From Thermoanaerobaculia bacterium (GTDB taxonomy: Bacteria > Acidobacteriota > Thermoanaerobaculia > Multivoradales > JAHEKO01): a stretch of DNA of 64,000 bases. A program made the position numbers and the translations under genes. The notes below the pieces were generated by a model that was not told the origin of the DNA, made no database searches, and saw only the letters and a list, made by a program, of their open reading frames with translations. This document shows positions 36,574 to 64,000 of the stretch, piece after piece (position 1 is the first letter of the stretch; each line of letters starts with the position of its first letter). Location: the NCBI GenBank assembly GCA_049664225.1, contig JBATEX010000075.1:7414-71413 (forward strand), read 5' to 3'.

Positions 36574-37737
36574 TCACCGACCGCAGGTCGTTCTGCCGCG
36601 ACATCGAATCAGCCGAGGGTCCGTGGATGCCGGTAATCCGGGCGGGTGCGGCCGGGCAGCCCAGGGAATCTCTGCCACGGGCTGCCCCATGCGTTCGATT
36701 CACTTCCTGGCTTCGATCGAGTGGTGAAGGAGAGCTAGCCTGGCGCCAGATCGGGGATCCGGACCACCACGGGTAGGCGAGGCGGAAAGCTCCCCGCGGG
36801 GAAGCCGACCCTGAAGTCACCCTGCCGCAGTTTCTCCGCAGCCTCGCGGTACGCCCCGACAAACCACCGGTAGGCCTCCACCAGCTCTCTTCGGGCAGCC
36901 TTGGAAGCCGCATGGAAGGCCGGCGCGAGGGCCTTGTTTGACCTCAACGGTTTATCGTGAGGGTGCTGAGCCAAGACTGCACTGACACCTAGTGGTCGAG
37001 TTGCCTTGTTGGCATGTCGATCGGCGGTTTCGGTCTCGATCTGGAGAACCAGCTCAGCGACCCGACTTCGGAGCCTCTCATCCGGGAGATGCTGCCAGCA
37101 AGGCAATGGCTCGAGCCGTACCGTCTCGGGAGATGCGTAGGCGAAGCGGTCGAACTCTTCTCGCCGAGCTCGCGCAGCGTACTCCTGGGTTCGGTCAAAC
37201 CACAGACCTCTTAGGGGCAGGCCTTCGAGCAGCGCCTCAACGCAATGGGCACCTGGCCACTCTCGAGGTCGAGCGACCAGACCCTCCTTGCAGCCGTGAG
37301 ACAAGAGGTACCTGAGTCGATCGATCTGAGCCGCCTCTTCCTGGCTGATCACGATGGCCTGGTACCGGCGACCCCAGAACTTTTCCCTCCACCCATGCAA
37401 TCGACCGGCCTCTCGTGCCAGGTTCGAGTTGAGGAAGTTCATGAAGCGGGCGAGTCCAGGGGCATTGTCGACACTCAGAAGAAGATGGTAGTGATTCGAG
37501 AGGAAGACGAACGCATGAAGCTCGACCGGGTAGAGCCTTTGGGCCCGAGCGAGGACCCCGATGATGATGGACTTCAACTCATCGGAGGGCTTGAGCAGGA
37601 ATCGGCCCTGCATTGTCCGACACGTCACTTCGACCAGGGCGCCGCCTTCGGGGATGAACCGCAGTCTCCTTGCCATACCTTAGACGTCGCAATGCCCTCC
37701 CGCGTTCTTGCAGAATCGGGTGGCACCTCTTCGGCGG
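36502..37737 (-). mobile_element. RAYT element bounded by inverted REP-like sequences
   Basis: GGAAGAGGTGCCAGCCGA at 36502-36519 is matched in inverted orientation at 37715-37737 (reverse complement CCGCCGAAGAGGTGCCACCCGAT). The shared core is GAAGAGGTGCCA-N-CCGA. Confidence 0.7.
36735..37676 (-). CDS. REP-associated tyrosine transposase (Y1/HUH, IS200-like superfamily)
   Basis: 313 aa. It has the HUH motif [10 protein letters not shown] and a Tyr-helix RLRYLLSHGCKEGLV. It is the only full-length copy of a sequence repeated four times in the window. Confidence 0.8.
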   Translation of the reverse strand: MARRLRFIPEGGALVEVTCRTMQGRFLLKPSDELKSIIIGVLARAQRLYPVELHAFVFLSNHYHLLLSVDNAPGLARFMNFLNSNLAREAGRLHGWREKFWGRRYQAIVISQEEAAQIDRLRYLLSHGCKEGLVARPREWPGAHCVEALLEGLPLRGLWFDRTQEYAARARREEFDRFAYASPETVRLEPLPCWQHLPDERLRSRVAELVLQIETETADRHANKATRPLGVSAVLAQHPHDKPLRSNKALAPAFHAASKAARRELVEAYRWFVGAYREAAEKLRQGDFRVGFPAGSFPPRLPVVVRIPDLAPG

Positions 37738-41078: not shown

Positions 41079-41290
41079 GTGCTGGACGCTCCCGGATGAA
41101 GGTCCGCTCGGTCGATTGACGAACTCGCCGGGCGGTTCACACGAGAATACACGGAGCCCGAGGGGGGGACTCTATAGTAACGACCGGGGCGTCCAGGCCC
41201 CACTGGTGACATGCTCAATCGCCGACGCCTGCGGCCGCGCTCGGACGTCGGCTATAGTCACTGTGCTTGACCGTTGCCGGTCGCAAACGT

Positions 41291-42952
41291 ATGAAGCTAT
41301 TCCGCCGCAGGCTCTCCGAGCTCAACCCCTCGCCAGCGAACCGTCGCTGGCTCTTCATCCCCTACGATCAGTTGAGCGATGAGATCGGACCGCTCGGCAG
41401 CGAATCCCCGGAGTCGCTCGGAATCGTCCTCGTCGAGAGCTCCTGGAAGGCGGCGCACCGCCCCTACCATCGGCAAAAGCTGGCGCTGGTTCTGGCCAAT
41501 CTTCGGCACTTCGCCCTCGAGCAGGCCGAGCGCGGTGTGGCGGTGCGCCATGTCGTGACCAACGCGCCGTACCGCGAAGCGCTGCAACCGATCGCCGCCG
41601 ACCTTGGGACCCTCCGGGTCATGGAGCCGGCCGAGCGGGAGCTGCGTGAGGACCTCGCTCCGCTCGTCTCGAACGGCGCCATCGAGGTCGCGCCGCACGA
41701 GGGGTGGCTCACGAGTCCGGATCAGTTTCTTCGCAGCGCCCGGAAGGGGCCGCCGTGGCGGATGGATTCCTTCTATCGCCTGGTGCGGCGCGAGAGCGGC
41801 ATACTCATGGAGAAGGGCAAGCCAACCGGCGGCAAGTTCAGCTTCGACGCCGAGAACAGAAGGCCGTGGAAGGGGGAGCCGGCGGCGCCCGAGCCACCGT
41901 GTTTCGAGACCGACGAGATCACCCGCGAAGTCGGCGACCTGATCGAGCGGCGCTTCGCCCGCCACCCCGGCCGCCTCGACCTCGAGATGCTGCCGGCGAG
42001 TCGCGACGACGCCGAGCGGCTCTGGTCGTGGGCGCTCGACAACTGTCTCGAGAACTTCGGGCCGTACGAAGATGCGATGTCGACGCGATCGAGGAACCTC
42101 TTCCACACCCGCATGTCGGCTCTCGTCAACCTGCACCGCTTGCTGCCGAGGACGCTGGTCACGGACGTCGTCGACCTTGACGCGCCGCTCGCGAGCCGCG
42201 AGGGCTTCATCCGCCAGGTTCTCGGCTGGCGTGAGTTCATGCGCCACGTGCATCGGGAGACCGACGGCTTTAGGAGGCTCCCGGCGGGCGAACCGCCGAC
42301 CAGAGCCGGATCCGGGGACGGTGGCTGGGAGACGTGGTCGGGGCAAGCCTGGCGGTCGTCGGAGGTTTTCCTCGAGTTTCTCGGTGGCGCTGAGCCGTCG
42401 GCGCTCGAGACCGACTGGCCCCTGCCACCGGCCTTCTGGGGCGCGCGGTCGGGTCTCGCCTGTCTCGACCAGGTCGTTACCGAGGTCTGGGACGACGCCT
42501 ACACACATCACATTCCGCGACTGATGGTTCTCGCCAACATCGGAACGCTCCTGGGGGTCAGTCCGCGGCAGCTGACCGACTGGTTCTGGGTCGCCTTTGC
42601 CGACGCTTACGACTGGGTCGTCGAGCCCAACGTCTTAGGGATGGGGACGTACGCGGTGGGTGGGCTCTTCACCACCAAGCCCTATGTCTCGGGCGCCAAC
42701 TACATCAACCGGATGAGCGACTACTGCGACAGTTGCCGCTTCAATCCGAAGGTCGATTGCCCGATCAACCGTATCTACTGGTCGTTTCTCGAGCGCAACC
42801 GCAGCCATTTCGAGGGCAACCCGAGAATGGGCCTCGTCATGCGCAACCTCGAGCGGCGGCCAGAGAAGCAGAAGAACAAAGACCGGATTGTCTTCGAATC
42901 GATGCGGCGGAGGCTCGCAGGCAGAAAAGAGCTGCGTCCGCCGTCGAGTTGA
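41291..42952 (+). CDS. phrB: FeS-BCP / (6-4) photolyase-like cryptochrome-photolyase family protein
   Basis: The start is ATG 41291. The COG3046-type N-terminus is RRWLFIPYDQLS. The C-terminal SDYCDSCRFNPKVDCPINRIYWSFL fits the Cys ligands of the 4Fe-4S cluster in PhrB/CryB-type enzymes. Confidence 0.75.
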   Translation: MKLFRRRLSELNPSPANRRWLFIPYDQLSDEIGPLGSESPESLGIVLVESSWKAAHRPYHRQKLALVLANLRHFALEQAERGVAVRHVVTNAPYREALQPIAADLGTLRVMEPAERELREDLAPLVSNGAIEVAPHEGWLTSPDQFLRSARKGPPWRMDSFYRLVRRESGILMEKGKPTGGKFSFDAENRRPWKGEPAAPEPPCFETDEITREVGDLIERRFARHPGRLDLEMLPASRDDAERLWSWALDNCLENFGPYEDAMSTRSRNLFHTRMSALVNLHRLLPRTLVTDVVDLDAPLASREGFIRQVLGWREFMRHVHRETDGFRRLPAGEPPTRAGSGDGGWETWSGQAWRSSEVFLEFLGGAEPSALETDWPLPPAFWGARSGLACLDQVVTEVWDDAYTHHIPRLMVLANIGTLLGVSPRQLTDWFWVAFADAYDWVVEPNVLGMGTYAVGGLFTTKPYVSGANYINRMSDYCDSCRFNPKVDCPINRIYWSFLERNRSHFEGNPRMGLVMRNLERRPEKQKNKDRIVFESMRRRLAGRKELRPPSS

Positions 42953-47525: not shown

Positions 47526-49037
47526 ATGAATCGAATTCTGGTGTTCCTGATAGCCTCCTCTATCCTACTTCCCGCCTCTGGTGCAGCCGAAGCCCAGCCG
47601 GTCAGCGAGGCTACCGAGTCTTGCCTGATGTGCCACGAGATCCTCCATCCCGGGATCGTGAGCGGCTGGAGGGCGAGCCGACATTCGAGGATCACCCCGG
47701 GTGAGGCCCGAAAGGTCGAGGGACTTGCCCTCAAAGTATCCAGCGAGCAGGTCCCGGCGGAACTGGAGGCTGTGGTCGTTGGCTGTGCCGAGTGCCATCT
47801 TTTGCGGCCCGAAGCTCATGCCGATACCTTCGACCACAACGAGTATCAGGTGCACATCGTGGTCAGCCCAGCGGACTGCGCGGTATGTCATACCGTCGAG
47901 GCTTCGCAGTACTCCCGGAACATCATGGCTCACGCGCACGGGAATCTGCAGGAGAACGCGCTCTACCAGGACCTGAGCCGTCAAATCATCGGAGAGGTCA
48001 CGTGGACAGGCGGCAGCCTGCATTTTCGAGACGCCGACCCAGAGATCAAAGCCCAGGGCTGCCTGTACTGTCACGGCACCCGCCTGCAGGTCACCGGGGT
48101 CGAAACACGGGAGACCGATCTCGGGGAGATGAGCTTCCCGATCTTGGACGGATGGCCAAACCAGGGAGTCGGCCGGATCAACCTCGACGGCAGTCTCGGT
48201 TCGTGCTCGGCTTGCCACGCTCGACACACCTTTTCGATCGAGACTGCTCGAAAGCCCTACACCTGCAAGGAGTGTCACGTCGGTCCCGACGTTCCGGTCT
48301 ACAAGGTGTACTCGGCGAGCAAGCACGGGAACATCTTCCACTCCAAGGAAAAAGATTGGGACTTCAACGCGGTCCCCTGGAAGGTCGGCGAGGACTTTCG
48401 CGCACCCACCTGCGCCACTTGCCACGTCAGCCTGCTCGTGGGCACGGACGGGGAGATGGTGGTCGAGCGCTCGCATCAGATGAACAACCGGATCGCATCG
48501 AGGATCTTCGGGCTCATCTACTCGCACGCTCATCCGAAAGACCCGGACACCACGGGCATTCGAAACAAGGACGGGCTCCCGTTGCCGACTGCGTTCGACG
48601 GCACGCCGGCCTCCGGTTTCCTGATCGATGCTGGAGAGCAGTCGAAACGGCGAAAGGAAATGCAGGCGGTCTGCCTGTCCTGCCATGGTACCTCCTGGGT
48701 ACGCGGGCACTTCGCCCGCTACGACAAGTCCCACGAGTCCACCAACGCCGCCACTCTGGAGGGGAGCCGGCTGTTGCAGGAGATTTGGAGCCGAGGGTAC
48801 GCCCAGGGGCCGGAGGCGGGGGGCAGCCCCTTCGACGAGGCGATCGAGAGGAGATGGGCCGATATCTGGCTGCTCTACGCCAACTCGATCCGTTTCGCCT
48901 CGGCGATGGCGGGAGGTGGTGACTACGCCGTGTTCGCGGACGGCTACTACAGCCATTCGAAGCGGCTCTCCGAGCTTCAGGAATGGCTTGTCGAACAGGA
49001 CGCCAAGGGCGGAGCCCCGGAGCAACAAGGGGAATGA
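47526..49037 (+). CDS. octahaem c-type cytochrome, hydroxylamine-oxidoreductase (HAO)-family-like
   Basis: 503 aa with a signal peptide. It has eight CxxCH motifs (CLMCH, CAECH, CAVCH, CLYCH, CSACH, CKECH, CATCH, CLSCH). The first is followed by W..S.H, as in HAO-type proteins. There is no CxxCK. Confidence 0.8.
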   Translation: MNRILVFLIASSILLPASGAAEAQPVSEATESCLMCHEILHPGIVSGWRASRHSRITPGEARKVEGLALKVSSEQVPAELEAVVVGCAECHLLRPEAHADTFDHNEYQVHIVVSPADCAVCHTVEASQYSRNIMAHAHGNLQENALYQDLSRQIIGEVTWTGGSLHFRDADPEIKAQGCLYCHGTRLQVTGVETRETDLGEMSFPILDGWPNQGVGRINLDGSLGSCSACHARHTFSIETARKPYTCKECHVGPDVPVYKVYSASKHGNIFHSKEKDWDFNAVPWKVGEDFRAPTCATCHVSLLVGTDGEMVVERSHQMNNRIASRIFGLIYSHAHPKDPDTTGIRNKDGLPLPTAFDGTPASGFLIDAGEQSKRRKEMQAVCLSCHGTSWVRGHFARYDKSHESTNAATLEGSRLLQEIWSRGYAQGPEAGGSPFDEAIERRWADIWLLYANSIRFASAMAGGGDYAVFADGYYSHSKRLSELQEWLVEQDAKGGAPEQQGE

Positions 49038-52074: not shown

Positions 52075-53166
52075 TCAATCATTCCTGAGAAACCGCGCGT
52101 CGGTCAGTGATTCCAGGAATGCCACGAGATCTCTCTGCTCCTCATCTGTCAGCTCGAATCCAGAGAGGATGGGATCCATGGATCCTTGGGAGTCTGATCG
52201 GCTGCTGATTCCCGCAGCGTAGTGATCGATGACCTCTCCTAGGGTGGAAAAGCGGCCATCGTGCATGTACGGAGCCGTCACCGCAATGTTGCGCAGGGTG
52301 GGGGCGCGAAAGCGACCCCTGTCCTCCTCGCGGTCGGTGATCCGGTGCACTCCGGTGTTGAGCTCCGCCTTCGTGCTGCCGGCGTGCTTGTCGACGAGTC
52401 CGGTGTCATGGAACCGCGGCTCCTCGGGTTGGGACCCTGCATAGACGACGGGGCCGGACAAATTGAAGCCCGAGTGGCAACGAAAGCAGTTCAAACGCCC
52501 AGAGAAGAAGAGACGTGCGCCGTTGCGCGCTGACCAGGAAAGAGCTTCGGTCTGGGCAGAATAGGCCCAGCGGTCGTACGCCGAGTCGCCCGAGATCAAG
52601 GTCCTCTGGTAGGTCGCCAGAGATTGCACGACATTGCTCAGCGTCACCGGTTCCTCGTCCTCGGGAAAACCGCGCTGAAACTGCTGGCGAACGACTGGGT
52701 CGTCCCGAAGACGCTGCAGCACCTCCGATTCCCGCCCAGACATACCCATCTCCACGGGATGTCTGTTCATGAGCGGGACGATTGCCTGATCCTCCAGACG
52801 GGTGAGTGAGGGGTCGTCCCAACCCAACGATGCGTTGTAGGCGACGTTCATCAGTGACATGGCCGAGCGCGGATGCTCGTCCCCCTCGGCACCCACGGCG
52901 CGGGCCCGACCGTCGGTGAAGGCCAGCTCTGGCCGATGACAGTCGGCGCATGCCAGGGTACCGTTGCCTGACAGTCGAGGGTCGTGAAACAAGAGCCTTC
53001 CCAGCTCCACCTTCTCGACCGTCATCGGATTCTCCGGTGGGACGCTCGGCTTCGGAAATCCGGGCGGTAGACACCAAGCAAAGTCGCCCGAGCCGATCGC
53101 CTTCTCACCACCTCCGAGACAGACCATCACGAGGAAGAGGCCTGTCGCCGCAGCATTCCTCACCAC
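52075..53166 (-). CDS. di-haem cytochrome c peroxidase (CCP/MauG family)
   Basis: 363 aa. It has CADCHRPELAF, CFRCHSG and MHDGRFSTLGEVIDHY. Confidence 0.85.
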   Translation of the reverse strand: MVRNAAATGLFLVMVCLGGGEKAIGSGDFAWCLPPGFPKPSVPPENPMTVEKVELGRLLFHDPRLSGNGTLACADCHRPELAFTDGRARAVGAEGDEHPRSAMSLMNVAYNASLGWDDPSLTRLEDQAIVPLMNRHPVEMGMSGRESEVLQRLRDDPVVRQQFQRGFPEDEEPVTLSNVVQSLATYQRTLISGDSAYDRWAYSAQTEALSWSARNGARLFFSGRLNCFRCHSGFNLSGPVVYAGSQPEEPRFHDTGLVDKHAGSTKAELNTGVHRITDREEDRGRFRAPTLRNIAVTAPYMHDGRFSTLGEVIDHYAAGISSRSDSQGSMDPILSGFELTDEEQRDLVAFLESLTDARFLRND

Positions 53167-53898: not shown

Positions 53899-54129
53899 GT
53901 GGCTCCGCTCTTCATTGAGCCGGGCAGTCCCTGGGAGAACGGCTACGTCGAATCCTTCAACGCGCGGCTCCGGGACGAGTTTCTCGATGGCGAGATCTTC
54001 GACACGCTCAAGGAAGTACAGGTGCTTACCGAACGCTGGCGGTGGCAGTACAGCCACGTCCGGCCCCACCAGTCGCTCGGCTGGCCGCTAGCGGCCAGCC
54101 GGGAGCACATGCATCCGGCCGTTTACTAA
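53899..54129 (+). mobile_element. rve-type (IS3-like) transposase C-terminal remnant
   Basis: FIEPGSPWENGYVESFNARLRDEFLDGEIFDTLKEVQVLTERWRWQYSHVRPHQSLG. It is preceded at 53837-53895 by a ~19-codon kinase-like stub (MLGSAISHYRITGQLGSAG). Confidence 0.7.
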
Positions 54130-55619: not shown

Positions 55620-55983
55620 ATGACCAAGTGTAGATTGCGAGCCGATGGAACCCCGTCTCCGCGGGGCCGTCGAACGCCCAAGCCACCACCGACAGAAGAG
55701 CAGTTGGCCGAACTGGAGCGGCTCACCGACCAGTTTCCTGAGTCACTCAGAGCCTTTCGCGATCGGGGCCTGCTGAACCCGGTTCGGAGGTTTCGTCTCG
55801 AAGAGGCCATCCGCCATCGATCCCGGACCCTAGTGCCCGTCCTGCACGGCGTTCACGACCCGCACAATCAGGCGGCGGTCATGCGTAGTTGCGAGGCCCT
55901 GGGCCTGCAGGAGTTCCACTTCATTCAGAGCGTGGCCGGTGGCTCTCTGCACGCCAACCCACGAATTACGCAGAACGCCCAGG
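55620..55983 (+). pseudogene. SpoU/TrmH-family RNA 2'-O-methyltransferase, 3'-truncated
   Basis: RTLVPVLHGVHDPHNQAAVMRSCEALGLQEFHFI is the SpoU motif-1 region. The rest of the domain is replaced by RAYT-derived sequence from about 55984. Confidence 0.6.
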
Positions 55984-56147
55984 GAAGAGGTAGTAGCCAC
56001 TTCTGGAGCAGAAATCGGCCCTGCATTGTCCGACACGTCACTTCGACCAGGGCGCTGCCTTGGGGGATGAACCGCAGTCTCCTTGCCATACCTTAGACGT
56101 CGCAATGCCCTCCCGCGTTCTTTCAGAATCGGATGGCACCTCTTCGG
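55984..56147 (-). mobile_element. RAYT mini-derivative D (REP-like end, first 28 codons, upstream REP)
   Basis: ATG at 56089 encodes [28 protein letters not shown]. The left end is gaagaggtagtagcca and the right end is ggatggcacctcttcgg. Confidence 0.75.
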
Positions 56148-56150
56148 AAA

Positions 56151-56429
56151 CTAGCGGTCCTGTCTTTGCGCACCATCCGAAACGGCGTCAACAACAGCGA
56201 GTATTCCAAATGCTAGTACCGTTGACAAAAACATGATTGGCGATCCATTGAGCTTCCCATCAGCAAACGCGCCAATGGTAGGCAGAAGTGTCCAAACTAG
56301 GGACACCATACCAAGAGACAGAAGCACTCTATATGTCCACGGTTTTGCACGGTTGAAGAATGGTAGGACCAGTATCACTGCTAGGCTCAGAATCACCGAA
56401 CTCTCAAGCCACCAGACAAAAAAGAACAC
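56151..56429 (-). CDS. hypothetical 3-TM membrane protein (lower G+C)
   Basis: 92 aa and strongly hydrophobic. I recognise no domain. Confidence 0.4.
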   Translation of the reverse strand: MFFFVWWLESSVILSLAVILVLPFFNRAKPWTYRVLLSLGMVSLVWTLLPTIGAFADGKLNGSPIMFLSTVLAFGILAVVDAVSDGAQRQDR

Positions 56430-56620
56430 TGCTTACCTCCCTTCAAGTCTCCTGTCTGCTTTGCCAATTGGAGGTAGGGGTGCCAGCCACTTCTGACTTG
56501 CACCCGTCGATAGGCGAAGATCAGCAAGCCAGCCACTAGGACAGTCACCAAGGGCCCGAGGAGGCGAACTGCTAGTAACCGTCGACGTGAGCCTTGGGCG
56601 GGGTTCTCTGGCATCTCCAT
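56393..56620 (-). CDS. hypothetical small membrane protein (possibly the frameshifted 5' part of the next ORF)
   Basis: 75 aa with one TM (LLGPLVTVLVAGLLIFAY). It overlaps 56151..56429 by 37 nt. Confidence 0.3.
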   Translation of the reverse strand: MEMPENPAQGSRRRLLAVRLLGPLVTVLVAGLLIFAYRRVQVRSGWHPYLQLAKQTGDLKGGKQCSFLSGGLRVR

Positions 56621-56725
56621 GATTCAGACTTCCTTCTCAAGGCAGCTATGTATAAGCGCCCACTAGCTTTGATTCGAGTCATGAATCGCCTGTCCATCCG
56701 GGGCCGCTCGTGGGTCGCGGCACCC

Positions 56726-57319
56726 CTAACGACTACCTTCGGTTAGCGTTCTGAGGTATTCCACGACGGCGCTGTCAGACCAATCCGCGGCGCCGGTATG
56801 GCGAAACACGATGTTACCCGCGCTGTCCACGATCCACGTCGTTGGTATTGGTGACGGGAATGAGGTCCCCTCTGGAGAACTCGCCACCCTCACCACAGGG
56901 AGCGTCAGCTCTGTCTTCTCCACGAACTTCTTCAAGGTGGCAGCTGGCTCTTCCGAAAGCAACATGAAGGCAATCTCGTCGTCGAAGTTCTCTGCCAACC
57001 GCTCCAACTCTGGCAACTCCAGGATGCAAGGGCGGCACCATGTGGCCCAGAAGTTCACCACCAGAGGTTTACCCCGGAATTCGGTCAACCGCACCCGTAC
57101 GCCATCAGGAGAATGGAGATGCCAAGAATAATCAAAGGGGTCCGAAAGAGTTGGTACCGGCGGCGCTGGAAGCCCGGATTCTGAACCACCCTCAGGCCAC
57201 TCGGCCATCTGCGTCACTGCCCAAAAGCCGATTCCGACCGCAATGAGGCCCCCTGCCAGTACTGTGAGCAGACAACCTGCTCCGGCACCGAGAAGAAAAC
57301 TACGGGTCGTGGGTCTCAT
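56726..57319 (-). CDS. membrane-anchored TlpA/ResA-like thiol:disulfide oxidoreductase
   Basis: The start is ATG 57319. It has an N-terminal TM, then LVVNFWATWCRPCILELPEL (thioredoxin WCxxC). Confidence 0.8.
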   Translation of the reverse strand: MRPTTRSFLLGAGAGCLLTVLAGGLIAVGIGFWAVTQMAEWPEGGSESGLPAPPVPTLSDPFDYSWHLHSPDGVRVRLTEFRGKPLVVNFWATWCRPCILELPELERLAENFDDEIAFMLLSEEPAATLKKFVEKTELTLPVVRVASSPEGTSFPSPIPTTWIVDSAGNIVFRHTGAADWSDSAVVEYLRTLTEGSR

Positions 57320-57443
57320 TTCGTACCAGCGGTGATCCGGTCCGTCAGCTTCCCGCTCGCCAGAATAGAAGTGTAGGTTTGAACATCTCTTTCCTGCCAA
57401 CGCCCGAGGTGAGCCTGCATCACCTCACTCTGTACGAATTGGA

Positions 57444-57770
57444 TCATCCCTTCCACCAAACACCCAGCTCTCCAAGTACCCAGATTACGAAGAGAAGCGA
57501 TGCCAGAGGGTTTAGGACCTTTGCCAGAAGCACGAGTCGGTCTATCTGAGAATCGCCGAGCTGCCTATAGTCCCCGGAACGGAGGAATCTCCGAACATCA
57601 TTCTGTTTCTGAATTGTTGTCTTGAAGAATCTTGGTTCACCGAAGGCCTGCCAGATTTCGTGATGATTGAGCCGTAGGCGTCGCAAGAGCAAATACCACA
57701 CAGTGAGAAGGGTCACGACAAGCGCCACGAGTGCTGACCAAGTGGTTGCGAAGAAGGAAGTCCACGTCAC
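57444..57770 (-). CDS. two-TM paralog family member 3b (putative immunity protein)
   Basis: 108 aa, built as TM1-RLRLNHHEIWQAFGEPRFF...YRQLGDSQIDRLV-TM2. It shares the W..(L/F)G.P..F and L.D..(L/I) motifs with five other ORFs in the locus. Confidence 0.6.
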   Translation of the reverse strand: MTWTSFFATTWSALVALVVTLLTVWYLLLRRLRLNHHEIWQAFGEPRFFKTTIQKQNDVRRFLRSGDYRQLGDSQIDRLVLLAKVLNPLASLLFVIWVLGELGVWWKG

Positions 57771-57824
57771 AGCCAGATACCTATGTGATTCATTCCGGTA
57801 AACGCCGACAGAGGTTTTCTCGAG

Positions 57825-58118
57825 TCACCTCTGAACCAAAACCAAGAAGATGAGTGCCAGCCAAAGCGCCGCCGCAAAGCTGATGATAGTCAGTTTCCAG
57901 ATGGTTCCAAGGCGATTCAACCGCGGGTCTTTGAGGTCTTTGTACTGACCTCGTAGCAGAAACCTGTTGGCATCTGTCGTTTGATTTAGAAAGGCATGCG
58001 GCCTTCCCAACTTATCCCACAACTCCCGATAGTGGACTTTCAGGTAACTGTAGAACCGATGCGCACACCCGGCACTCAATAGCCCCATAAGAACTGTGGC
58101 CGCCACCAAGGCAAACAT
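57825..58118 (-). CDS. two-TM paralog family member 3a (putative immunity protein)
   Basis: ATG 58118 lies 14 nt after the stop of the toxin-tip remnant. The layout is TM1-YLKVHYRELWDKLGRPHAF...YKDLKDPRLNRL-TM2. Confidence 0.6.
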   Translation of the reverse strand: MFALVAATVLMGLLSAGCAHRFYSYLKVHYRELWDKLGRPHAFLNQTTDANRFLLRGQYKDLKDPRLNRLGTIWKLTIISFAAALWLALIFLVLVQR

Positions 58119-58132
58119 CGCGAGATCATCTC

Positions 58133-58363
58133 CTACCTGCAATCTCCACCTCCCAAAGTGACCTGCCGCCCAGCGACTATGTATGCTGCCGCTCCTGCGC
58201 CCACCCCAAGACCCGTATTGTCGTGAAGCTCCCCATCCGCGAAGACCGTCCCGAGCTGTCCTCCCAGGGGTAAGCCCCAAAACGACAGAATGCCATAGCT
58301 AAGGGCATTCGCATAGCCGCCGACCGCGGCTCGGACTTGACCTCCATCCGGAAATCTCGGGCC
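58133..58363 (-). pseudogene. remnant of a third glycine-rich Rhs-type toxin tip
   Basis: ...GGYANALSYGILSFWGLPLGGQLGTVFADGELHDNTGLGVGAGAAAYIVAGRQVTLGGGDCR ends like the main tip (GYILFGGQKTFGGGDCG). The upstream part is replaced by RAYT mini-element E. Confidence 0.55.
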
Positions 58364-58364
58364 C

Positions 58365-58765
58365 GGAATAGGTGCCTGCCGAACCTGGCTCCCTACCGGC
58401 GACCCCAGAACTTCTCCCTCCACCCATGCAGTCGACCGGCCTCTCGTGCCAGGTTCGAGTTGAGGAAGTTCATGAACCGGGCGAGTCGAGGAGCGTCGTC
58501 GACACTCAGTAGAAGGTGGTAATGATTCGAGAGGAAGACGAACGCATGAAGCTCGACCGGGTAGAGCCTTTGGGCTCGGGCGAGGACCCCGATGATGATG
58601 GACTTCAAGTCATCGGAGGGAGTGAGCAGAAATCGGCCCTGCATTGTCCGACACGTCACTTCGACCAGGGCGCCGCCTTCGGGGATGTACCGCAGTCTCC
58701 GTGCCATGCACTAGAGGTCGCGCTCCACTCCCACGTTCTTGCAGAATCGGATGGCACCTCGTCGG
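58365..58765 (-). mobile_element. RAYT mini-derivative E (both REP-like ends, first 104 codons; internal deletion)
   Basis: ggaataggtgcctgccgaacctggctccc at 58365-58393 corresponds to 36502-36530. It is joined directly to codon 104 of the RAYT (ORF 58393..58707). The right end is ggatggcacctcgtcgg. Confidence 0.8.
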
Positions 58766-58852
58766 AACCAGAGGATGATCCCGCCGCGCCTGAATTGAAG
58801 CTCCGTGACATTTCTCTCAGGGGGGCAAGATACTGTTTCCTTCAATCTGGCA

Positions 58853-59164
58853 TCATCCTACAAGCCCGAGAACTAACAACCCGATCAAGAGCAACAGGGA
58901 TAGGAACTCGCAGGTCCGCTCAAGAAGAACAAGACACCTGAGCCTCTGAGTTCTCATGGATTCCACAGGTGTCCTCCAAAGAAACCGCTGGACTCGGCCC
59001 TCAATGCTAACCGAGTTGTTCCAGAGAAGCGAAGGACACCCTAATGTCTCCCAGGTCTGCCTGAAGTTCCGCTTGAGGAGTAAGAATAAGCTTGTACGAA
59101 GCAGTCCCGATACCAGAAACAGAAGAGCCGCGGAAGTACCTAGCGCCAGCTGCAAGGTTCGCAT
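58853..59164 (-). CDS. two-TM paralog family member 2b (putative immunity protein)
   Basis: 103 aa, built as TM1-LLKRNFRQTWETLGCPSLLW...MRTQRLRCLV-TM2. Confidence 0.6.
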   Translation of the reverse strand: MRTLQLALGTSAALLFLVSGLLRTSLFLLLKRNFRQTWETLGCPSLLWNNSVSIEGRVQRFLWRTPVESMRTQRLRCLVLLERTCEFLSLLLLIGLLVLGLVG

Positions 59165-59172
59165 TTCGGGTC

Positions 59173-59487
59173 CTAGAACGCGACAAAATAGCTGAAGACA
59201 AGCAGCAGCACGAACAGCGTGGCCTCCAAGAGCCTCTTCTTAACCACAAGGCTGTCAAGCTGTTCGTCATTCAGTTTCTTAAATGATCCGGACCAGACGA
59301 ACTTGATCCTCTGGAGATTGGACCGAAGAGTGCTCGATGGGAACAACGAAGGTGCTCCCAATTCGTTCCATGTCTGGGGATATTTCGAGCGGAGGAGACG
59401 ATAAACTTGCTGGGTGACCAGGAAGTACGGCACAACCAGAACCCACATCAATCCCCAAATCACAGCGAGGCCAGTTCGTTCAGTCAT
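59173..59487 (-). CDS. two-TM paralog family member 2a (putative immunity protein)
   Basis: ATG 59487 has GAGGTG 4 nt upstream and lies 8 nt after the orphan toxin stop. The layout is TM1-RLLRSKYPQTWNELGAPSLF...FKKLNDEQLDSLV-TM2. Confidence 0.6.
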   Translation of the reverse strand: MTERTGLAVIWGLMWVLVVPYFLVTQQVYRLLRSKYPQTWNELGAPSLFPSSTLRSNLQRIKFVWSGSFKKLNDEQLDSLVVKKRLLEATLFVLLLVFSYFVAF

Positions 59488-59495
59488 CGTGCACC

Positions 59496-61081
59496 TCAAT
59501 CGCAAAGATCACTGACTACGAAGGTCCAGCTCGGTGAGAATGTGAGAGCAAACCCTCCTCCGATACCGACGCCGATGCCTCCGACCAACGTCGAGCCACC
59601 CGTGGACAGAGTATAGGAAAAGTATGTCGTACGACCCGCACCCAGACCAAGAACTCCAGAGAAAGTGAGGCCCAAGCCCTCTGCTCCGCCCGTGCCCAAC
59701 CCCACGGGGTACACACCACCTGCAGCACCATACGTTGCTATTGGTCCTCCAAACGTCGCTTCGGCTCGGGCTGGAGTGCTGACCAAGGACGCATAACCTC
59801 CCCAGAATTCTCCGCCTTCGACCAAGACGGCACCGGTCCAATTGTAGATAGCGCTGCAGAAGACCTCACTTACCATCTCCAGGACTTCCGGGTCATCCTC
59901 ACCGCCCCCTTCTGTGCCCGACTCGTTGCTATCTCCTGCTCCCGACCCCCCTTCGCCTGGCGTCTCCGGTGTCGGTTCTACAACCTCCGGATCGACTCTT
60001 CCGAAGATCCCCCCAAAAACGGGTCCGCGGCGTTCAGCTCCCCGTTTCATCGATAGTCCTCCCGGACCAAACCCAAAGTTCGCTGCAGAATTGTAACTCC
60101 AGTAGGCAAACCTCCAAAAAGCATCGAGCACCAACCGATACTCCCGAAAGGTCTCCAGATCCCCTTCTTCCTTGTTCGGACGCAAGCCAAAGGGATCCAC
60201 TAGGTTGATCGGATTTCCCATCACATAGGCGTAGCGGTTGAGACTCTGCGGTGCTGCAGGACTCCCTCTCAATGGGTCGACCCTGCCGAAGCGGCCGAGG
60301 AAGGGGCTATAGTAGCGGGCATGCATGTAGTCGAGATCATCCAGCGTGCCGGTGTAGCCCAAGTCTCGTTCGTGACCGGTGTACTTGAGGGGGAACTGGT
60401 TCTGGCCTGAATCAGTGACCTCTTCGCCATAAGGCAGATAGTCGTGCTGGTAGAGGAGATTGCCGGCCGAGTCGGTGACCCGTCTCGGGGTGCCGAGATG
60501 GTCGAGGTGATAGTGGCGCACCTCGCCGTGGTCAACCGGTTCGTGGCCAGGGAGACCGAGATCACTCGGTTCTGGGCGGGGCCGCCCGGGGCGGAGGCGG
60601 CGACGGCGGTCAAGTTGCCGAAGGGGTCGTAGGTGTAGTCCTCGGTGTAGCCCGAGGCCGTGCCGGAGACCAGGCGGCTAACCTCGTCGTAGACGTAGGT
60701 CTCGCTGCCGATCTCGTGAATGTTGCCGGAGCCGTCGTAGGTGAAGGGTCCCCAGTCCCACAGGGATCCGCAGCTGTCCTCCGCAGAGAGGCTGTAGGTG
60801 CGGGCGATGCCACTCGGGTCGATCTCCTGGAGGTCGGAGACGCCGTTGAGGTGCGGAATCTCGCTCCACAAGCGATTCGGGTGGTAGGCGAAGTTGTCCG
60901 TGAAGCCCTCGACGCGCTTGAGCCACCCTTTGGAGAAGGCGTACTCGAGGGTCCGGTTCGGCTCATCCTGCGGACAGTCCGCGTGGAGACAGTCGGGATA
61001 GGTGATCCGGGCAGTCGGCCCCAGCAGCCTACCCGCTACTGAACTGAGCGCCTGACCTGCAGCAATATTGTGAACAGTGCC
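59496..61081 (-). pseudogene. orphan rhs module: YD-repeat core fragment (no start, ~0.33-kb internal deletion with frameshift) plus complete alternative toxin tip
   Basis: The frame opens at 61081, directly after the stop of 61082..61528. It has YD repeats (YTYDPFGNL) and a frame change near 60525. The core end is RYYSPFLGRFGRVDP...NPINLVDPFGL, followed by a 228-aa glycine-rich tip ending SDLCD. Confidence 0.75.
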
Positions 61082-61528
61082 TCACGAAGAGGATGAGTTG
61101 CTCCGCCAACTAGGCTCCTCCGTCTCGTTCTTTTCCCGAGCAGCCGCGAACTCGGCCACGAGCTGACCTACTGTTGAGGGTAGTTCGCGGCCCTCATTAG
61201 CTCCAGAAGCTACCCTGAGTTCAAGGAGCTCGTCATTCAGATCGGACCAGGCAACGCTGAACTCAGCGAGATACCCGAACCGCTTAGAGAGAGCGTTCAG
61301 CGATTGCTCCGGAGCGAGCTTCTCCTGAGGTATTCTGAGCGTCTTCGCCACACGATTTCTTTCTCTCAGCACCGCATCCGCGGGAGCCGAGTAGCACTCA
61401 GGGAAGGGTTTGAGGAACTCCGCGTCAGACAAGCTCTCGAGCTGTTTGGCTCGATACCGGCGAAAGAGAATGCCCACACCCACCGCCACCACTCCGAAGA
61501 CTGAGATTAGATAATTCTGAGTGTCCAT
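61082..61528 (-). CDS. hypothetical single-TM protein
   Basis: 148 aa with an N-terminal TM (LISVFGVVAVGVGILF) and an acidic C-terminus. I recognise no domain. Confidence 0.45.
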   Translation of the reverse strand: MDTQNYLISVFGVVAVGVGILFRRYRAKQLESLSDAEFLKPFPECYSAPADAVLRERNRVAKTLRIPQEKLAPEQSLNALSKRFGYLAEFSVAWSDLNDELLELRVASGANEGRELPSTVGQLVAEFAAAREKNETEEPSWRSNSSSS

Positions 61529-61631: not shown

Positions 61632-61955
61632 CTACTGGTGCCCCAAAATCCAGGCCACATAGTAGATAAACAGTCCCCACAGCACCAACGTGAGGATCCC
61701 TTCTATCCTGACCATCCAGTTAAGTCTTTGGTCCTGCAACTCACCTATCCGACCGCTTATGACGAATTTGTAGAAAGCTAGTTGATTGCGAATCGAAGTG
61801 CGAAACACGGATGGAGCGCCTAGGTCCTCCCAATGTTGATGATGGTAGATCTCGAGCCGACGGCACAAGAAATACCGCAAGACAATTGCAAATGCTAGGA
61901 GCGAAACAAAAACACCACCGAGAGCTTGGTACAACATCTGCGCACCCGTTGCCAC
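61632..61955 (-). CDS. two-TM paralog family member 1b (putative immunity protein)
   Basis: 107 aa. Its GTG start shares 1 nt with the TAG of member 1a. The layout is TM1-RRLEIYHHQHWEDLGAPSVF...GELQDQRLNWMV-TM2. Confidence 0.6.
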   Translation of the reverse strand: MATGAQMLYQALGGVFVSLLAFAIVLRYFLCRRLEIYHHQHWEDLGAPSVFRTSIRNQLAFYKFVISGRIGELQDQRLNWMVRIEGILTLVLWGLFIYYVAWILGHQ

Positions 61956-62275
61956 TAGTCAAGCCAGCGCAACTTAGCCAACACCAGAATTGCGAAGATT
62001 GACGAGATCAGCAAGAAGACCTTGATCTGATTCTTATACTTCCCGACGAGCCGATCGAGATGCTCATCACCCAGGGATCGGAATTCATTCGACCGAATGA
62101 AAGTGCCGTAACTGCGAGATGAGTTCCAGAAGAGCCCCGGGGACCCGAGTGACCTCCACTTCTCATGATGATTCTGCCTCAGATACTTCAGAAGCCAATA
62201 TGATCGGACAAAGGCGTATACAAGAGCAGCCGCACTCACCCATAAAAGAACCCAGGCCAGGAATTCGTGTGTCAC
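61955..62275 (-). CDS. two-TM paralog family member 1a (putative immunity protein)
   Basis: 106 aa. Its GTG start overlaps the rhs stop (GTGA). The layout is TM1-YLRQNHHEKWRSLGSPGLFW...FRSLGDEHLDRLV-TM2. Confidence 0.6.
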   Translation of the reverse strand: MTHEFLAWVLLWVSAAALVYAFVRSYWLLKYLRQNHHEKWRSLGSPGLFWNSSRSYGTFIRSNEFRSLGDEHLDRLVGKYKNQIKVFLLISSIFAILVLAKLRWLD

Positions 62276-64000
62276 CCGCAGTCACCCCCTCCGAAGGTCT
62301 TCTGGCCGCCAAACAGAATGTAGCCTGACAGGCCACCCCCCACAACCCACCCGCCTCGGAGCGTATCGCCGCCTGAATGTGTCACACCTTCTATAGCATA
62401 GCCCGGAAGAAGCGGCACGATGATAACTCCGCCAGCGCGAACTTGGAACCCGTCTTCGGGAGCCGGCCCTAACTGCCAGGACAAGAATCCGTCGGAGGGA
62501 GCCGAAAGGGAGCTTTCCCCTGCGATGCGACCTGCTATCCCGAGTACGAACCCCACTGCACCAAACAATGTCAAGCGGTTGTAATCACCTGCCTCAGCCG
62601 AGAGTTGGCCCCCCACTGGATATACAGGGACTTGGCTAGTCCCGGCGAATGATATTCGAATCTGACTGCAATCCTGAGCTGCTTCTCCTTCTCCTGCGCC
62701 AACCTCCGTGTTCCCGGTCCCCCCCTCACCTCCCGCCCCTCCCTCACCAGGCTTCTCCGGTGTCGGTTCTACAACCACCCGCTCGGCCAAGATGATCGAA
62801 CTCGGATCATGCCCCGCCTCTCTCTCGGCGAGTGCGGCTTCGAGCGGGTCACCACCGCCGCCGCCAAACACCTGTAGGAAGAGCCAGCCCCAGTACCACA
62901 TGTCGTGGTATACGCCATACTCAAGGAACGTGCTCTTCGACTCTATGTAGAATCCGAATCCACCCGATCTCGGACCCAATCCAGTGGGATCAGTCAGGTT
63001 GATCGGATTTCCCATCACATAGGCGTAGCGGTTGAGACTCTGCGGTGCTGCAGGACTCCCTCTCAATGGGTCGACCCTGCCGAAGCGAGCCAGGAAGGGG
63101 CTGTAGTAGCGCGCATGCATGTAGTCGAGATCATCCAGCGTGCCGGTGTAGCCCGAGTCCCGTTCGTGGCCGGTGTATTTGAGGGGAAACTGGTTCTGGC
63201 CTGAATCGGTGACCTCTTCGCCATAAGGCAGATAGTCGTGCTGGTAGAGGAGATTGCCGGCCGAGTCGGTGACCCGTCTCGGGGTGCCGAGATGGTCCAG
63301 GTGGTAGTGACGGACCTCGCCTCCCGGGTGCACCGAGGAGACGAGACGTCCATTGCCGTAGATCATGTCCCGCTTCCAGCGCCACTCGTCGTTGCCCAGG
63401 CCGGAGCTGACCTCGTACTGACGGAGCACCTTGCCTGACAAGTCGCGTAGAGAAACTGTCTCCTCGAGTGCCGACATGCCTCCCGGCTCGTGGATCGTCC
63501 AGAGCCGCTCGCCACCGGCCGTGTAGAGATGGGTCCAGCTGAGGGAGCCGGCTTCCTGCCGAGTCAAGCGACTCAAGGCATCGTAGGTGTAGGTCGTGCC
63601 GTTCCAATCGGTCATGTTGCCGGCGGCGTCGTAGCTTGCTGTGAGCAGCCGATTCGTGGCCGGGGAGACCATGATCGCGCGCAACTGAACCATGCCGCCC
63701 GGGGTACTGGCTTCCACCCCGGTCAGGTTGCCGAATGGGTCGTAGGTGTAGTTCTCAGAATAGCCCGAAGCTGTGCCGGAGGTCAGGCGGCCGACTTCGT
63801 CGTAGAGGTAGCTCTCACCAGCGATCCCGCTGATGTTACCTGAGCCGTCGTAGGCGTAGGGCCCCCAGTTCCATAGCGACCCACCACTGTCTTCGGCAGA
63901 GAGGCTGTAGGTGCGCGGAACACCACTCGGATCCACATCCTGGACATCGGAGACGCCGTTGAGATGCGGAATCTCGCTGAATAGCCGGTTCGGGTGGTAG
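62272..64000 (-). CDS. Rhs/YD-repeat polymorphic toxin, 3' part (N-terminus beyond window end)
   Basis: The frame stays open upstream of the listed GTG 63936 to the window edge (...YHPNRLFSEIPHLNGVSDVQD). It has YD repeats (YTYDPFGNL, YDAAGNM, YTYDALSRL). The core end is RYYSPFLARFGRVDP...NRYAYVMGNPINLTDPTGL, followed by a 234-aa glycine-rich tip. Confidence 0.85.
   Translation of the reverse strand, partial: YHPNRLFSEIPHLNGVSDVQDVDPSGVPRTYSLSAEDSGGSLWNWGPYAYDGSGNISGIAGESYLYDEVGRLTSGTASGYSENYTYDPFGNLTGVEASTPGGMVQLRAIMVSPATNRLLTASYDAAGNMTDWNGTTYTYDALSRLTRQEAGSLSWTHLYTAGGERLWTIHEPGGMSALEETVSLRDLSGKVLRQYEVSSGLGNDEWRWKRDMIYGNGRLVSSVHPGGEVRHYHLDHLGTPRRVTDSAGNLLYQHDYLPYGEEVTDSGQNQFPLKYTGHERDSGYTGTLDDLDYMHARYYSPFLARFGRVDPLRGSPAAPQSLNRYAYVMGNPINLTDPTGLGPRSGGFGFYIESKSTFLEYGVYHDMWYWGWLFLQVFGGGGGDPLEAALAEREAGHDPSSIILAERVVVEPTPEKPGEGGAGGEGGTGNTEVGAGEGEAAQDCSQIRISFAGTSQVPVYPVGGQLSAEAGDYNRLTLFGAVGFVLGIAGRIAGESSLSAPSDGFLSWQLGPAPEDGFQVRAGGVIIVPLLPGYAIEGVTHSGGDTLRGGWVVGGGLSGYILFGGQKTFGGGDCG

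Follow-up and report, generated by a model that had tools for sequence, protein, structure and literature searches.

Introduction

Rhs proteins carry their toxin as a C-terminal tip that is enclosed in the Rhs shell and cleaved off at a DPxGL motif by an aspartyl protease in the C-terminal plug (PMC10684867). Non-enzymatic killing is known for few Rhs tips; the worked example is Tse5 (PA2684, RhsP1) of Pseudomonas aeruginosa, an Rhs-borne pore-former with a two-transmembrane (two-TM) immunity protein, Tsi5 (PMC9637101, PMC10684867, PDB 8CP6). Here we describe an Rhs tip (tip A) near one end of a 64,000-nucleotide stretch of a Thermoanaerobaculia bacterium (contig JBATEX010000075.1; hereafter “the window,” meaning the whole stretch that was analyzed), which, judging from its sequence and that of its neighbors, is most likely a new and very rare membrane-attacking toxin of bacterial warfare. 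The interbacterial weapons of its source phylum, the Acidobacteriota, and of its class, the Thermoanaerobaculia, are essentially unstudied.

The class IIa microcins (microcin V/colicin V with Cvi) are Gly/Ala/Ser-rich, non-enzymatic, membrane-acting peptides that contain a disulfide and are paired with a small immunity protein in the membrane; they are made as free peptides of ~80–100 amino acids with a double-glycine leader, and their disulfide is local to the C-terminus. The ionophores of contact-dependent inhibition (CDI) are two-domain toxins whose membrane CdiI immunity proteins are polymorphic (~30% identity) (PMC11630599). The only pore-forming domain in the 2012 survey of polymorphic toxins was Tox-WTIP, with two TM helices and the motifs RxxR and Wx[ST]IP (PMC3482391). 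Finally, Sec-exported YD-shell/teneurin-like proteins carry polymorphic C-terminal domains of ~15 kDa with an immunity gene directly downstream, and at least one of these domains acts on the membrane and is toxic only from the periplasmic side (PMC13018210).

The Main Rhs Gene and Its Tip

The window holds the C-terminal 575 residues of a larger Rhs protein; the frame of its open reading frame (ORF; 62272..63936, minus strand) is open to base 63999, so that the gene is truncated by the end of the window. The parts of the gene are as follows.

62977..64000, minus strand: C-terminal portion of the main Rhs protein, with YD repeats and the Rhs-associated core to ...NPINLTDPTGL (Pfam, NCBIfam and PDB relatives)
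62851..62976, minus strand: tip A residues 1–42, aromatic/hydrophobic pre-segment GPRSGGFGFYIESKSTFLEYGVYHDMWYWGWLFLQVFGGGGG (read directly; aligns with the pre-segment of tip B)
62779..62850, minus strand: tip A residues 43–66, DPLEAALAEREAGHDPSSIILAER, a predicted helical stretch that is kept in the relative P0017
62677..62778, minus strand: tip A residues 67–100, acidic Pro/Gly/Glu linker VVVEPTPEKPGEGGAGGEGGTGNTEVGAGEGEAA (motif and DNA identity)
62275..62676, minus strand: tip A residues 101–234, Gly-rich module, the putative toxin domain (134 amino acids, 22% Gly)

The main ORF matched RHS_repeat (PF05593, 2.7e-14) and RHS (2.4e-9) in Pfam as well as TIGR01643 (2.4e-8) and the Rhs-associated core model TIGR03696 (Rhs_assc_core, 4.7e-17, residues 235–320) in NCBIfam, and its PDB relatives are Rhs/TccC shells. 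The core model stops at residue 320, exactly at the canonical core end ...NPINLTDPTGL that the original prediction, made from the letters alone, had read here; this end carries the PxxxxDPxGL autoproteolysis motif, and the variable tip follows it. At the DNA level, the main rhs gene is homologous to the orphan and other tip lineages as far as 62970, which is six bases away from the first codon of the tip. YD repeats, a core followed by a variable tip, and downstream gene pairs with orphan cassettes are all present, and by these sequence features the locus is one of the Rhs/YD-repeat polymorphic toxins.

Tip A itself is 234 amino acids long (62275–62976, minus strand), begins directly after the core and ends at the stop codon at 62272–62274. 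The predicted plan of an aromatic start, an acidic linker and a Gly-rich module (134 amino acids) with two cysteines was borne out, and the segments that had been quoted are all there; residues 43–66 (DPLEAALAEREAGHDPSSIILAER), however, had been left out of that description. Secondary structure assigned by DSSP to the single-sequence AlphaFold2 model places a helix at residues 44–53, with low confidence. The acidic linker, VVEPTPEKPGEGG in short, reads VVVEPTPEKPGEGG...GEGEAA over residues 67–100; its pattern EPTPExPGxGG is invariant in tip A, in the orphan tip B of the same window and in P0017, and it occurs in none of 97 other tips from related Rhs genes. The aromatic pre-segment is a different matter: similar aromatic openings also begin unrelated tips of the same Rhs lineage among these 97, and because of this the pre-segment is a trait of the Rhs lineage and not specific to the toxin type of tip A.

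The only two cysteines of tip A, Cys103 and Cys233, are the third and the next-to-last residues of the module, and this bracket is kept in all three complete members (A, B and P0017). The invariant columns of the module alignment are only four glycines and the terminal cysteine. An internal repeat in the module was unsupported for A, B and P0017.

Relatives of the Tip Are Very Few

An exhaustive HMMER phmmer scan with tip A, covering 1.84 billion representative (cluster) proteins, returned only two relatives. P0016 is a fragment of 83 amino acids that is 67% identical, and P0017 (207 amino acids, 39% identical, E 6e-4) keeps the DPSSxILA stretch, the linker (as EPTPETPGSGG), the cysteine at the start of the module (QGCRG) and the one next to its end (VGCQ). 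A word-indexed search of 5.8 billion proteins gave zero matches with tip A, and its profile version found only P0016–P0018, adding only P0018, which is a near copy of remnant C described below. Metagenome scans for the linker motif had no match, and a comparison by phmmer and hidden Markov model (HMM) of 97 tips, taken from 78 loci of related Rhs genes in GTDB genomes, showed none that resembled tips A, B or P0017.

Nor did the tips match anything in Pfam, NCBIfam, PHROGs or PADLOC. Relaxing the Pfam threshold to E <=10 for five family members still gave no match, including to the nuclease, deaminase, ADP-ribosyltransferase, peptidase, ColM and lactococcin models. Among PDB chain sequences, tip A as a single sequence had no match to E 10, and the tip profile had two at chance level only (FAP221 and an HTH_9 protein, E 5.5 and 6.3), with no Rhs or Tse5 chain. 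With no family or PDB match above chance and two relatives among the 1.84 billion representatives, the claim that this tip is of an unrecognized type holds, and the view that the tip domain is new is supported as far as sequence methods reach. Neither a profile match to enzymatic toxins (nucleases, deaminases, ADP-ribosyltransferases, peptidases, lipases) nor their conserved catalytic residues were found in the tip; because no usable structure model was obtained, a remote fold-level relation to such a toxin may nevertheless exist.

A Family of Two-Transmembrane Immunity Candidates

Downstream of each of the three tips in the window lies a pair of homologous two-TM proteins of ~105 amino acids, forming a six-member family to which the two membrane-protein neighbors noticed in the original prediction (61955–62275 and 61632–61955) belong.

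61955..62275, minus strand: immA1, first putative immunity gene of cassette A, two-TM, 106 amino acids (75%-identical homologs follow A-type remnants in L011–L013)
61632..61955, minus strand: immA2, second putative immunity gene of cassette A, two-TM paralog of 101–107 amino acids (paired with immA1 in L011–L013)
59173..59505, minus strand: immB1, two-TM immunity paralog, ~104 amino acids from MTERTG... (family alignment)
58853..59164, minus strand: immB2, two-TM immunity paralog, 103 amino acids (family alignment)
57825..58142, minus strand: immC1, two-TM immunity paralog (homologs P0005 and P0009)
57444..57770, minus strand: immC2, two-TM immunity paralog, 108 amino acids (paired with a C1-type gene also in L001–L003)

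The listed ORF of immC1 (151 amino acids) is over-extended, as its homologs begin MQVGDD... or MFALV.... The six paralogs make one alignable family with pairwise identities of 21–35%; all pairs fall in this range, and a division into position-specific subfamilies of first and second genes was rejected on that account. At either end of each protein is a strongly hydrophobic helix (KD19 2.1–2.7), and the loop of 50–61 residues between the two helices has a net charge of +4 to +7; five residues (L32, W40, G44, P46 and F59) are invariant in all six.

The GTG start of immA1 overlaps the TGA stop of the Rhs gene (GTGA), which suggests translational coupling, and the second gene begins within a base. 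Between immA1 and its counterpart in L013, dN/dS is ~0.38. The same pairs recur elsewhere: B1 and B2 follow tip B in L006, L009 and L010, A1 and A2 follow the A-type remnants in L011–L013, and C1 and C2 stand as pairs without any toxin in L001–L003. In the last three (L001:8001-8696, L002 and L003) the C1/C2-type pairs lie in an island of small membrane and lipoprotein-like genes of another genome (a 956-kb contig), and this island resembles a reserve of orphan immunity genes.

This protein family matches the tip in its rarity: 5.8 billion proteins include 15 clusters of it, and its one named source is a Thermoanaerobaculia metagenome-assembled genome (MAG). Searches with the immunity proteins gave nothing above chance (a sub-threshold DUF4229 match and one TM peptide in the PDB).

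Tips B and C

The two further tips of the window are an orphan and a remnant.

59496..60521, minus strand: orphan ORF of 341 amino acids, an Rhs core end (TIGR03696, 2.6e-17) with tip B (59499–60182)
58133..58423, minus strand: remnant of a third tip (tip C), namely the C-terminal portion of an A-type module, with the end ...YIVAGRQVTLGGGDCR (tip HMM, E 3.9e-19)

All the features that had been pointed out in these two could be read: in tip B the same linker as in tip A, the first cysteine in VFCSAIY and the terminal SDLCD, and in remnant C (of which P0018 is a near-identical copy) the end YIVAGRQVTLGGGDCR. That the three are divergent members of one tip family, as also proposed, holds in part. 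Tips A and C are related, with 43% identity in the alignment and a common YIxxGxQxTxGGGDC end, whereas homology between the modules of A and B is not demonstrable: the two tips match by BLASTP (E 4e-6) over the pre-segment and linker, and their modules align no better than shuffled sequences (Smith-Waterman z = -0.08). What A and B have in common, by sequence comparison, is the pre-segment, the linker, the composition, the cysteine bracket and the immunity family.

Weak links between the modules run through two other proteins, from A to P0017 (z 1.5), from P0017 to L081 (z 3.2) and from L081 to B (z 2.9). L081 is a Thermoanaerobaculia Rhs protein of 1680 amino acids with a Sec signal peptide, whose Gly-rich, cysteine-containing tip is followed by a member of the two-TM immunity family (E 1e-11 in a small search); among the 97 tips of related Rhs genes it is the only one that connects with the family, and it does so via this immunity gene.

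Displacement and Exchange of Tips

The best explanation of the region, from its sequence, is that it is the polymorphic end of an Rhs locus, with the expressed tip A, the displaced orphan tip B and the tip remnant C, each with its own two-TM pair. In contig L008, which is 99.7% identical to window positions 55855–60527, tip B is part of a long Rhs ORF that counts 997 codons, stays open to the end of the contig and has a core 94% identical to that of the main gene of the window. Tip B is also found on Rhs fragments in L009, L006 and L010, and it is base-for-base identical in three other metagenome contigs. Sequence comparison thus shows tip displacement: tip B is an orphan here and sits on a long Rhs ORF in another strain, the tips having been exchanged between strains. 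One A-type remnant, in L013, has 84% DNA identity and keeps the frame.

Two further parts lie in the array.

60522..61024, minus strand: degraded rhs core fragment heading the orphan (window self-BLAST; RHS_repeat match in the ORF at 60269–60871)
58393..58707, minus strand: truncated IS200-like (Y1_Tnp) transposase fragment between cassette B and remnant C (PF01797, E 2e-4, below the curated cut-off)

In the self-BLAST of the window, 63635–64000 matched 60522–60887 at 77% and 62970–63321 matched 60176–60527 at 93.5%; the orphan core fragment is without 313 nucleotides relative to the main gene, which breaks its frame. The transposase fragment is present in L008, too.

At the DNA level, tips A and B are alike only in an island of 56 nucleotides in the linker (62730–62785 against 59939–59994, 84%). 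Further, between the window and L006 the pre-segment of tip B differs far more than the module does. Taken together, these observations suggest that the linker is a second recombination joint, at which toxin modules could be swapped.

Two side observations concern the ends of this array and its copies. In L004 (3241-3780), an NCBI Thermoanaerobaculia MAG contig, the module of tip B is out of frame with the Rhs gene, which stops after ...GGGGAGKR; the module matches the tip HMM in another frame, the explanation being either a pseudogene with a frameshift or an error in the assembly. A SpoU methylase ORF is truncated in the window (55620–56096, plus strand), while an intact SpoU gene in L013 (57-842) abuts the A-type remnant and its immunity pair, so that the boundary of the array differs between strains.

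Carrier Lineage and Neighboring Genes

Rhs relatives from Thermoanaerobaculia and other Acidobacteriota (40–47% core identity; L081:4442-9484 and many of L014–L091) have a Sec-type signal peptide at the N-terminus and, after it, a conserved HPNxxRGF... segment, and PAAR or VgrG domains were not noticed in them. Many of the genomes concerned have several such Rhs genes and orphan tips. Elsewhere in the window, a scan of 20 large ORFs found no genes for a type VI secretion system (T6SS) or another secretion system.

One more small gene lies inside the array.

61082..61528, minus strand: gene between the orphan and cassette A, for a protein of 148 amino acids that has a single TM helix at its N-terminus (no family match)

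It is weakly similar (E 0.017) to L028:4913-5350, a gene immediately upstream of an immunity-family homolog, and may represent a different type of orphan immunity gene. The last immunity pair is directly followed, in L008 as well, by a gene for a membrane-anchored thioredoxin-fold protein (56726–57400, minus strand), which is TlpA-like (AhpC-TSA 1.7e-15, Redoxin, Thioredoxin); the presence of a predicted periplasmic thiol-disulfide oxidoreductase beside cysteine-bracketed toxins may or may not be a coincidence. Just past the end of the array, an ORF of 54 amino acids (55925–56089, minus strand) without a Pfam match has only the MARRLR(Y/F)IP... N-terminus in common with IS200-like transposases. 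The window also contains a full-length IS200-like (Y1_Tnp) transposase (36735–37676, minus strand) and an rve_3 integrase fragment (53899–54129, plus strand), and among the ordinary chromosomal genes are a multi-heme cytochrome c (47526–49037, plus strand), a di-heme cytochrome c peroxidase (52075–53166, minus strand) and a photolyase-related protein, DPRP (41267–42952, plus strand).

Discussion

The membrane-targeting interpretation of tip A that the original prediction suggested seems reasonable and, on indirect evidence, the most economical. We lean, by no great measure, toward the module being a non-enzymatic, membrane-acting (permeabilizing) toxin, similar in function to Tse5-CT/Tsi5 or the CDI ionophores and unrelated to them in sequence, because the candidate immunity proteins are of a membrane type, no catalytic residues are conserved and the composition is rich in Gly, Ala, Ser and Val; the bracketing cysteine pair, too, would make sense in the oxidizing periplasm. 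In such a mechanism, autoproteolysis at DPxGL would free the 234-residue fragment from the Rhs shell, and the C-terminal 134 residues would act in or on the cytoplasmic membrane of the target, causing an ion leak or depolarization. The two terminal cysteines would pair as a disulfide in the oxidizing periplasm and tie the ends of the module together, while the aromatic pre-segment and the acidic linker might help with packaging, with the approach to the membrane or with entry. The cognate toxin would be blocked within or at the membrane by the two-TM proteins, perhaps acting as a heterodimer.

Several observations weigh against a membrane-acting toxin. The tips have a net charge of -10 to -15, which is unusual for attackers of anionic membranes, and no module has the clear hydrophobicity of a TM helix except for one borderline stretch in A (KD19 1.72). 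The beta-amphipathic periodicity of the modules is only weakly above that of shuffled sequences (z 0.7–2.6), and GxxxG patterns, counted at 10 and 13 where ~10–12 are expected at 21–23% Gly, are not enriched. AlphaFold2 fails on the tip (mean confidence, pLDDT, of 35 from the single sequence and 38 from a five-row alignment, with strands only in the module), and the best Foldseek match of the model against the PDB (E 0.19) was disregarded. The lack of detectable similarity between the modules of A and B also counts on this side, as does the position of the N-terminus of the main Rhs protein, and hence of its delivery domain or export route, beyond base 64000 (scanning metagenome DNA for the missing upstream sequence gave no match). 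Finally, the invariant residues of the immunity family sit in the basic loop, and by the positive-inside rule this loop would be cytoplasmic.

A more ambitious version of the membrane-acting proposal would make the module the founder of its own class of membrane toxins delivered by Rhs proteins. In this version the domain, small, acidic and beta-rich, with its ends stapled by a disulfide that forms only in the periplasm of the target, would insert as beta-hairpins or oligomerize into a pore, and would be neutralized by a heterodimer of two-TM paralogs; the EPTPExPGxGG linker would be the second recombination joint, at which such modules could be exchanged without the pre-segment, and the carrier a Sec-exported, T6SS-independent Rhs lineage of the Acidobacteriota. 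As a whole, this combination is speculative and unlikely to be right in every part.

The alternative that survives best has the toxin directed at the envelope without forming a pore, binding or modifying lipid II, undecaprenyl carriers or an inner-membrane protein in the manner of lactococcin 972 or colicin M, with the membrane proteins shielding either the target or the toxin. Membrane-anchored immunity and the cysteine bracket point to the periplasm or membrane here as well, and the module is acidic, not strongly hydrophobic, and predicted (with low confidence) to be all-beta. The tip, however, has no similarity to ColM, lactococcin or any other Pfam family and no conserved polar or catalytic residues, and, if the positive-inside prediction is right, next to none of each immunity protein would face the periplasm; we regard this alternative as unlikely.

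The placement of the conserved immunity residues in a cytoplasmic loop keeps a third explanation alive, namely that the tip is a cytoplasm-acting toxin of unrecognized fold, bound by the basic loops of the two-TM proteins, whose anchoring in the membrane would be incidental. All five invariant residues lie in this loop and the charges are complementary (+4 to +7 in the loops against -10 to -15 in the tips), which could mean direct binding of the acidic toxin in the cytoplasm. Yet the conserved terminal cysteine pairs are hard to square with a reducing cytoplasm, a very Gly-rich, low-charge module without conserved catalytic residues would be atypical of an enzyme, and two-TM immunity proteins typically partner membrane-acting toxins (PMC9637101, PMC11630599); we regard a cytoplasmic site of action as rather improbable.

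It is very improbable that the tip is merely a non-functional, low-complexity, decaying end of an Rhs gene next to unrelated small membrane proteins: its low-complexity composition, failed structure prediction, very narrow distribution and dN/dS not clearly below 1 (on differences too few to inform) would fit, but the frame is open over 234 codons, the tip/immunity-pair cassette is present in no fewer than nine independent contigs and has the pair attached in every one, an identical tip B is found on a long Rhs ORF (997 codons) elsewhere, the cysteine bracket and linker are kept in a 39%-identical relative, and the Rhs stop overlaps the start of immA1.

If tip A does act on membranes, it would be a second, unrelated and apparently beta-rich membrane-active tip, widening the known routes of polymorphic toxins through membranes, and a redox-dependent disulfide staple and a need for two membrane immunity proteins would add to that breadth. 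The locus is also a clean natural case of tip displacement, with a hint of a second swap point inside the tip. Uncharacterized Rhs tips are very common, and this tip family is tiny and found only in metagenomes, so the practical impact will be modest until activity is shown.

Comparison With Known Systems

Tse5-CT/Tsi5 offers the closest parallel. In Tse5, and presumably here too, an Rhs shell encloses a toxin fragment (~150 amino acids in Tse5) that is freed by the C-terminal aspartyl protease, and neither toxin has a predicted enzymatic signature; Tse5-CT inserts in membranes and depolarizes cells, and Tsi5 resembles the proteins described here in its small size, its integral membrane nature, its two predicted TM regions and the position of its gene directly downstream. 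Tip A differs in having no sequence or profile similarity to Tse5-CT to E 10 (among PDB chains, with 8CP6 assumed to be one of them) and in the character of the toxin domain: Tse5-CT is predicted to be helical, with TM and amphipathic helices, whereas the module of tip A is predicted, with low confidence, to have only strands, and a clear TM helix is absent. The present system is further set apart from Tse5 by its two immunity genes per toxin, its terminal cysteine pair and its long acidic linker, and while Tse5 is PAAR-like and T6SS-delivered, the relatives of the window's Rhs protein carry Sec signal peptides.

The CDI ionophores (CdiA-CT of the EC93 type) resemble tip A in being polymorphic tips with an N-terminal entry part and a C-terminal membrane-active part, and their CdiI proteins are integral membrane proteins that are polymorphic at ~30% identity and presumably specific, much as the six paralogs here are 21–35% identical. 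The ionophores are, however, five-helix bundles borne on CdiA of the type V secretion system, whereas tip A is borne on an Rhs protein, is predicted (with low confidence) to be beta-rich and has no sequence similarity to them. Tip A also differs from the microcins, since it is part of an Rhs polyprotein without a leader and its cysteine pair brackets the domain; kinship with microcin V was rejected at an hhalign probability of 0.2% for the tip profile against MccV. Like Tox-WTIP, the module would be a non-catalytic toxin domain at the end of an RHS-type polymorphic toxin, and membership of that family was rejected with RxxR and Wx[ST]IP both absent from tips A, B and P0017. A Gly-zipper signal, and with it membership of the Gly-zipper families (Pfam; Tse4-like), was rejected as well: the GxxxG patterns are at chance level, an effect of composition, and no Pfam Gly-zipper model matched any of five family members at E <=10. 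With the YD-shell/teneurin-like proteins, the locus has in common a YD shell, a polymorphic C-terminal domain, an adjoining immunity gene and, in its Thermoanaerobaculia relatives, Sec signal peptides; the C-terminal domains are unrelated, and L004 has only a faint TEN_YD-shell match.

Tip A probably works like Tse5-CT and the CDI ionophores while being a member of neither group, and its distinguishing traits are a probably beta-rich character (predicted with low confidence), the terminal cysteine pair, the conserved acidic linker, the two immunity paralogs and a carrier lineage in which relatives have Sec signal peptides and not PAAR.

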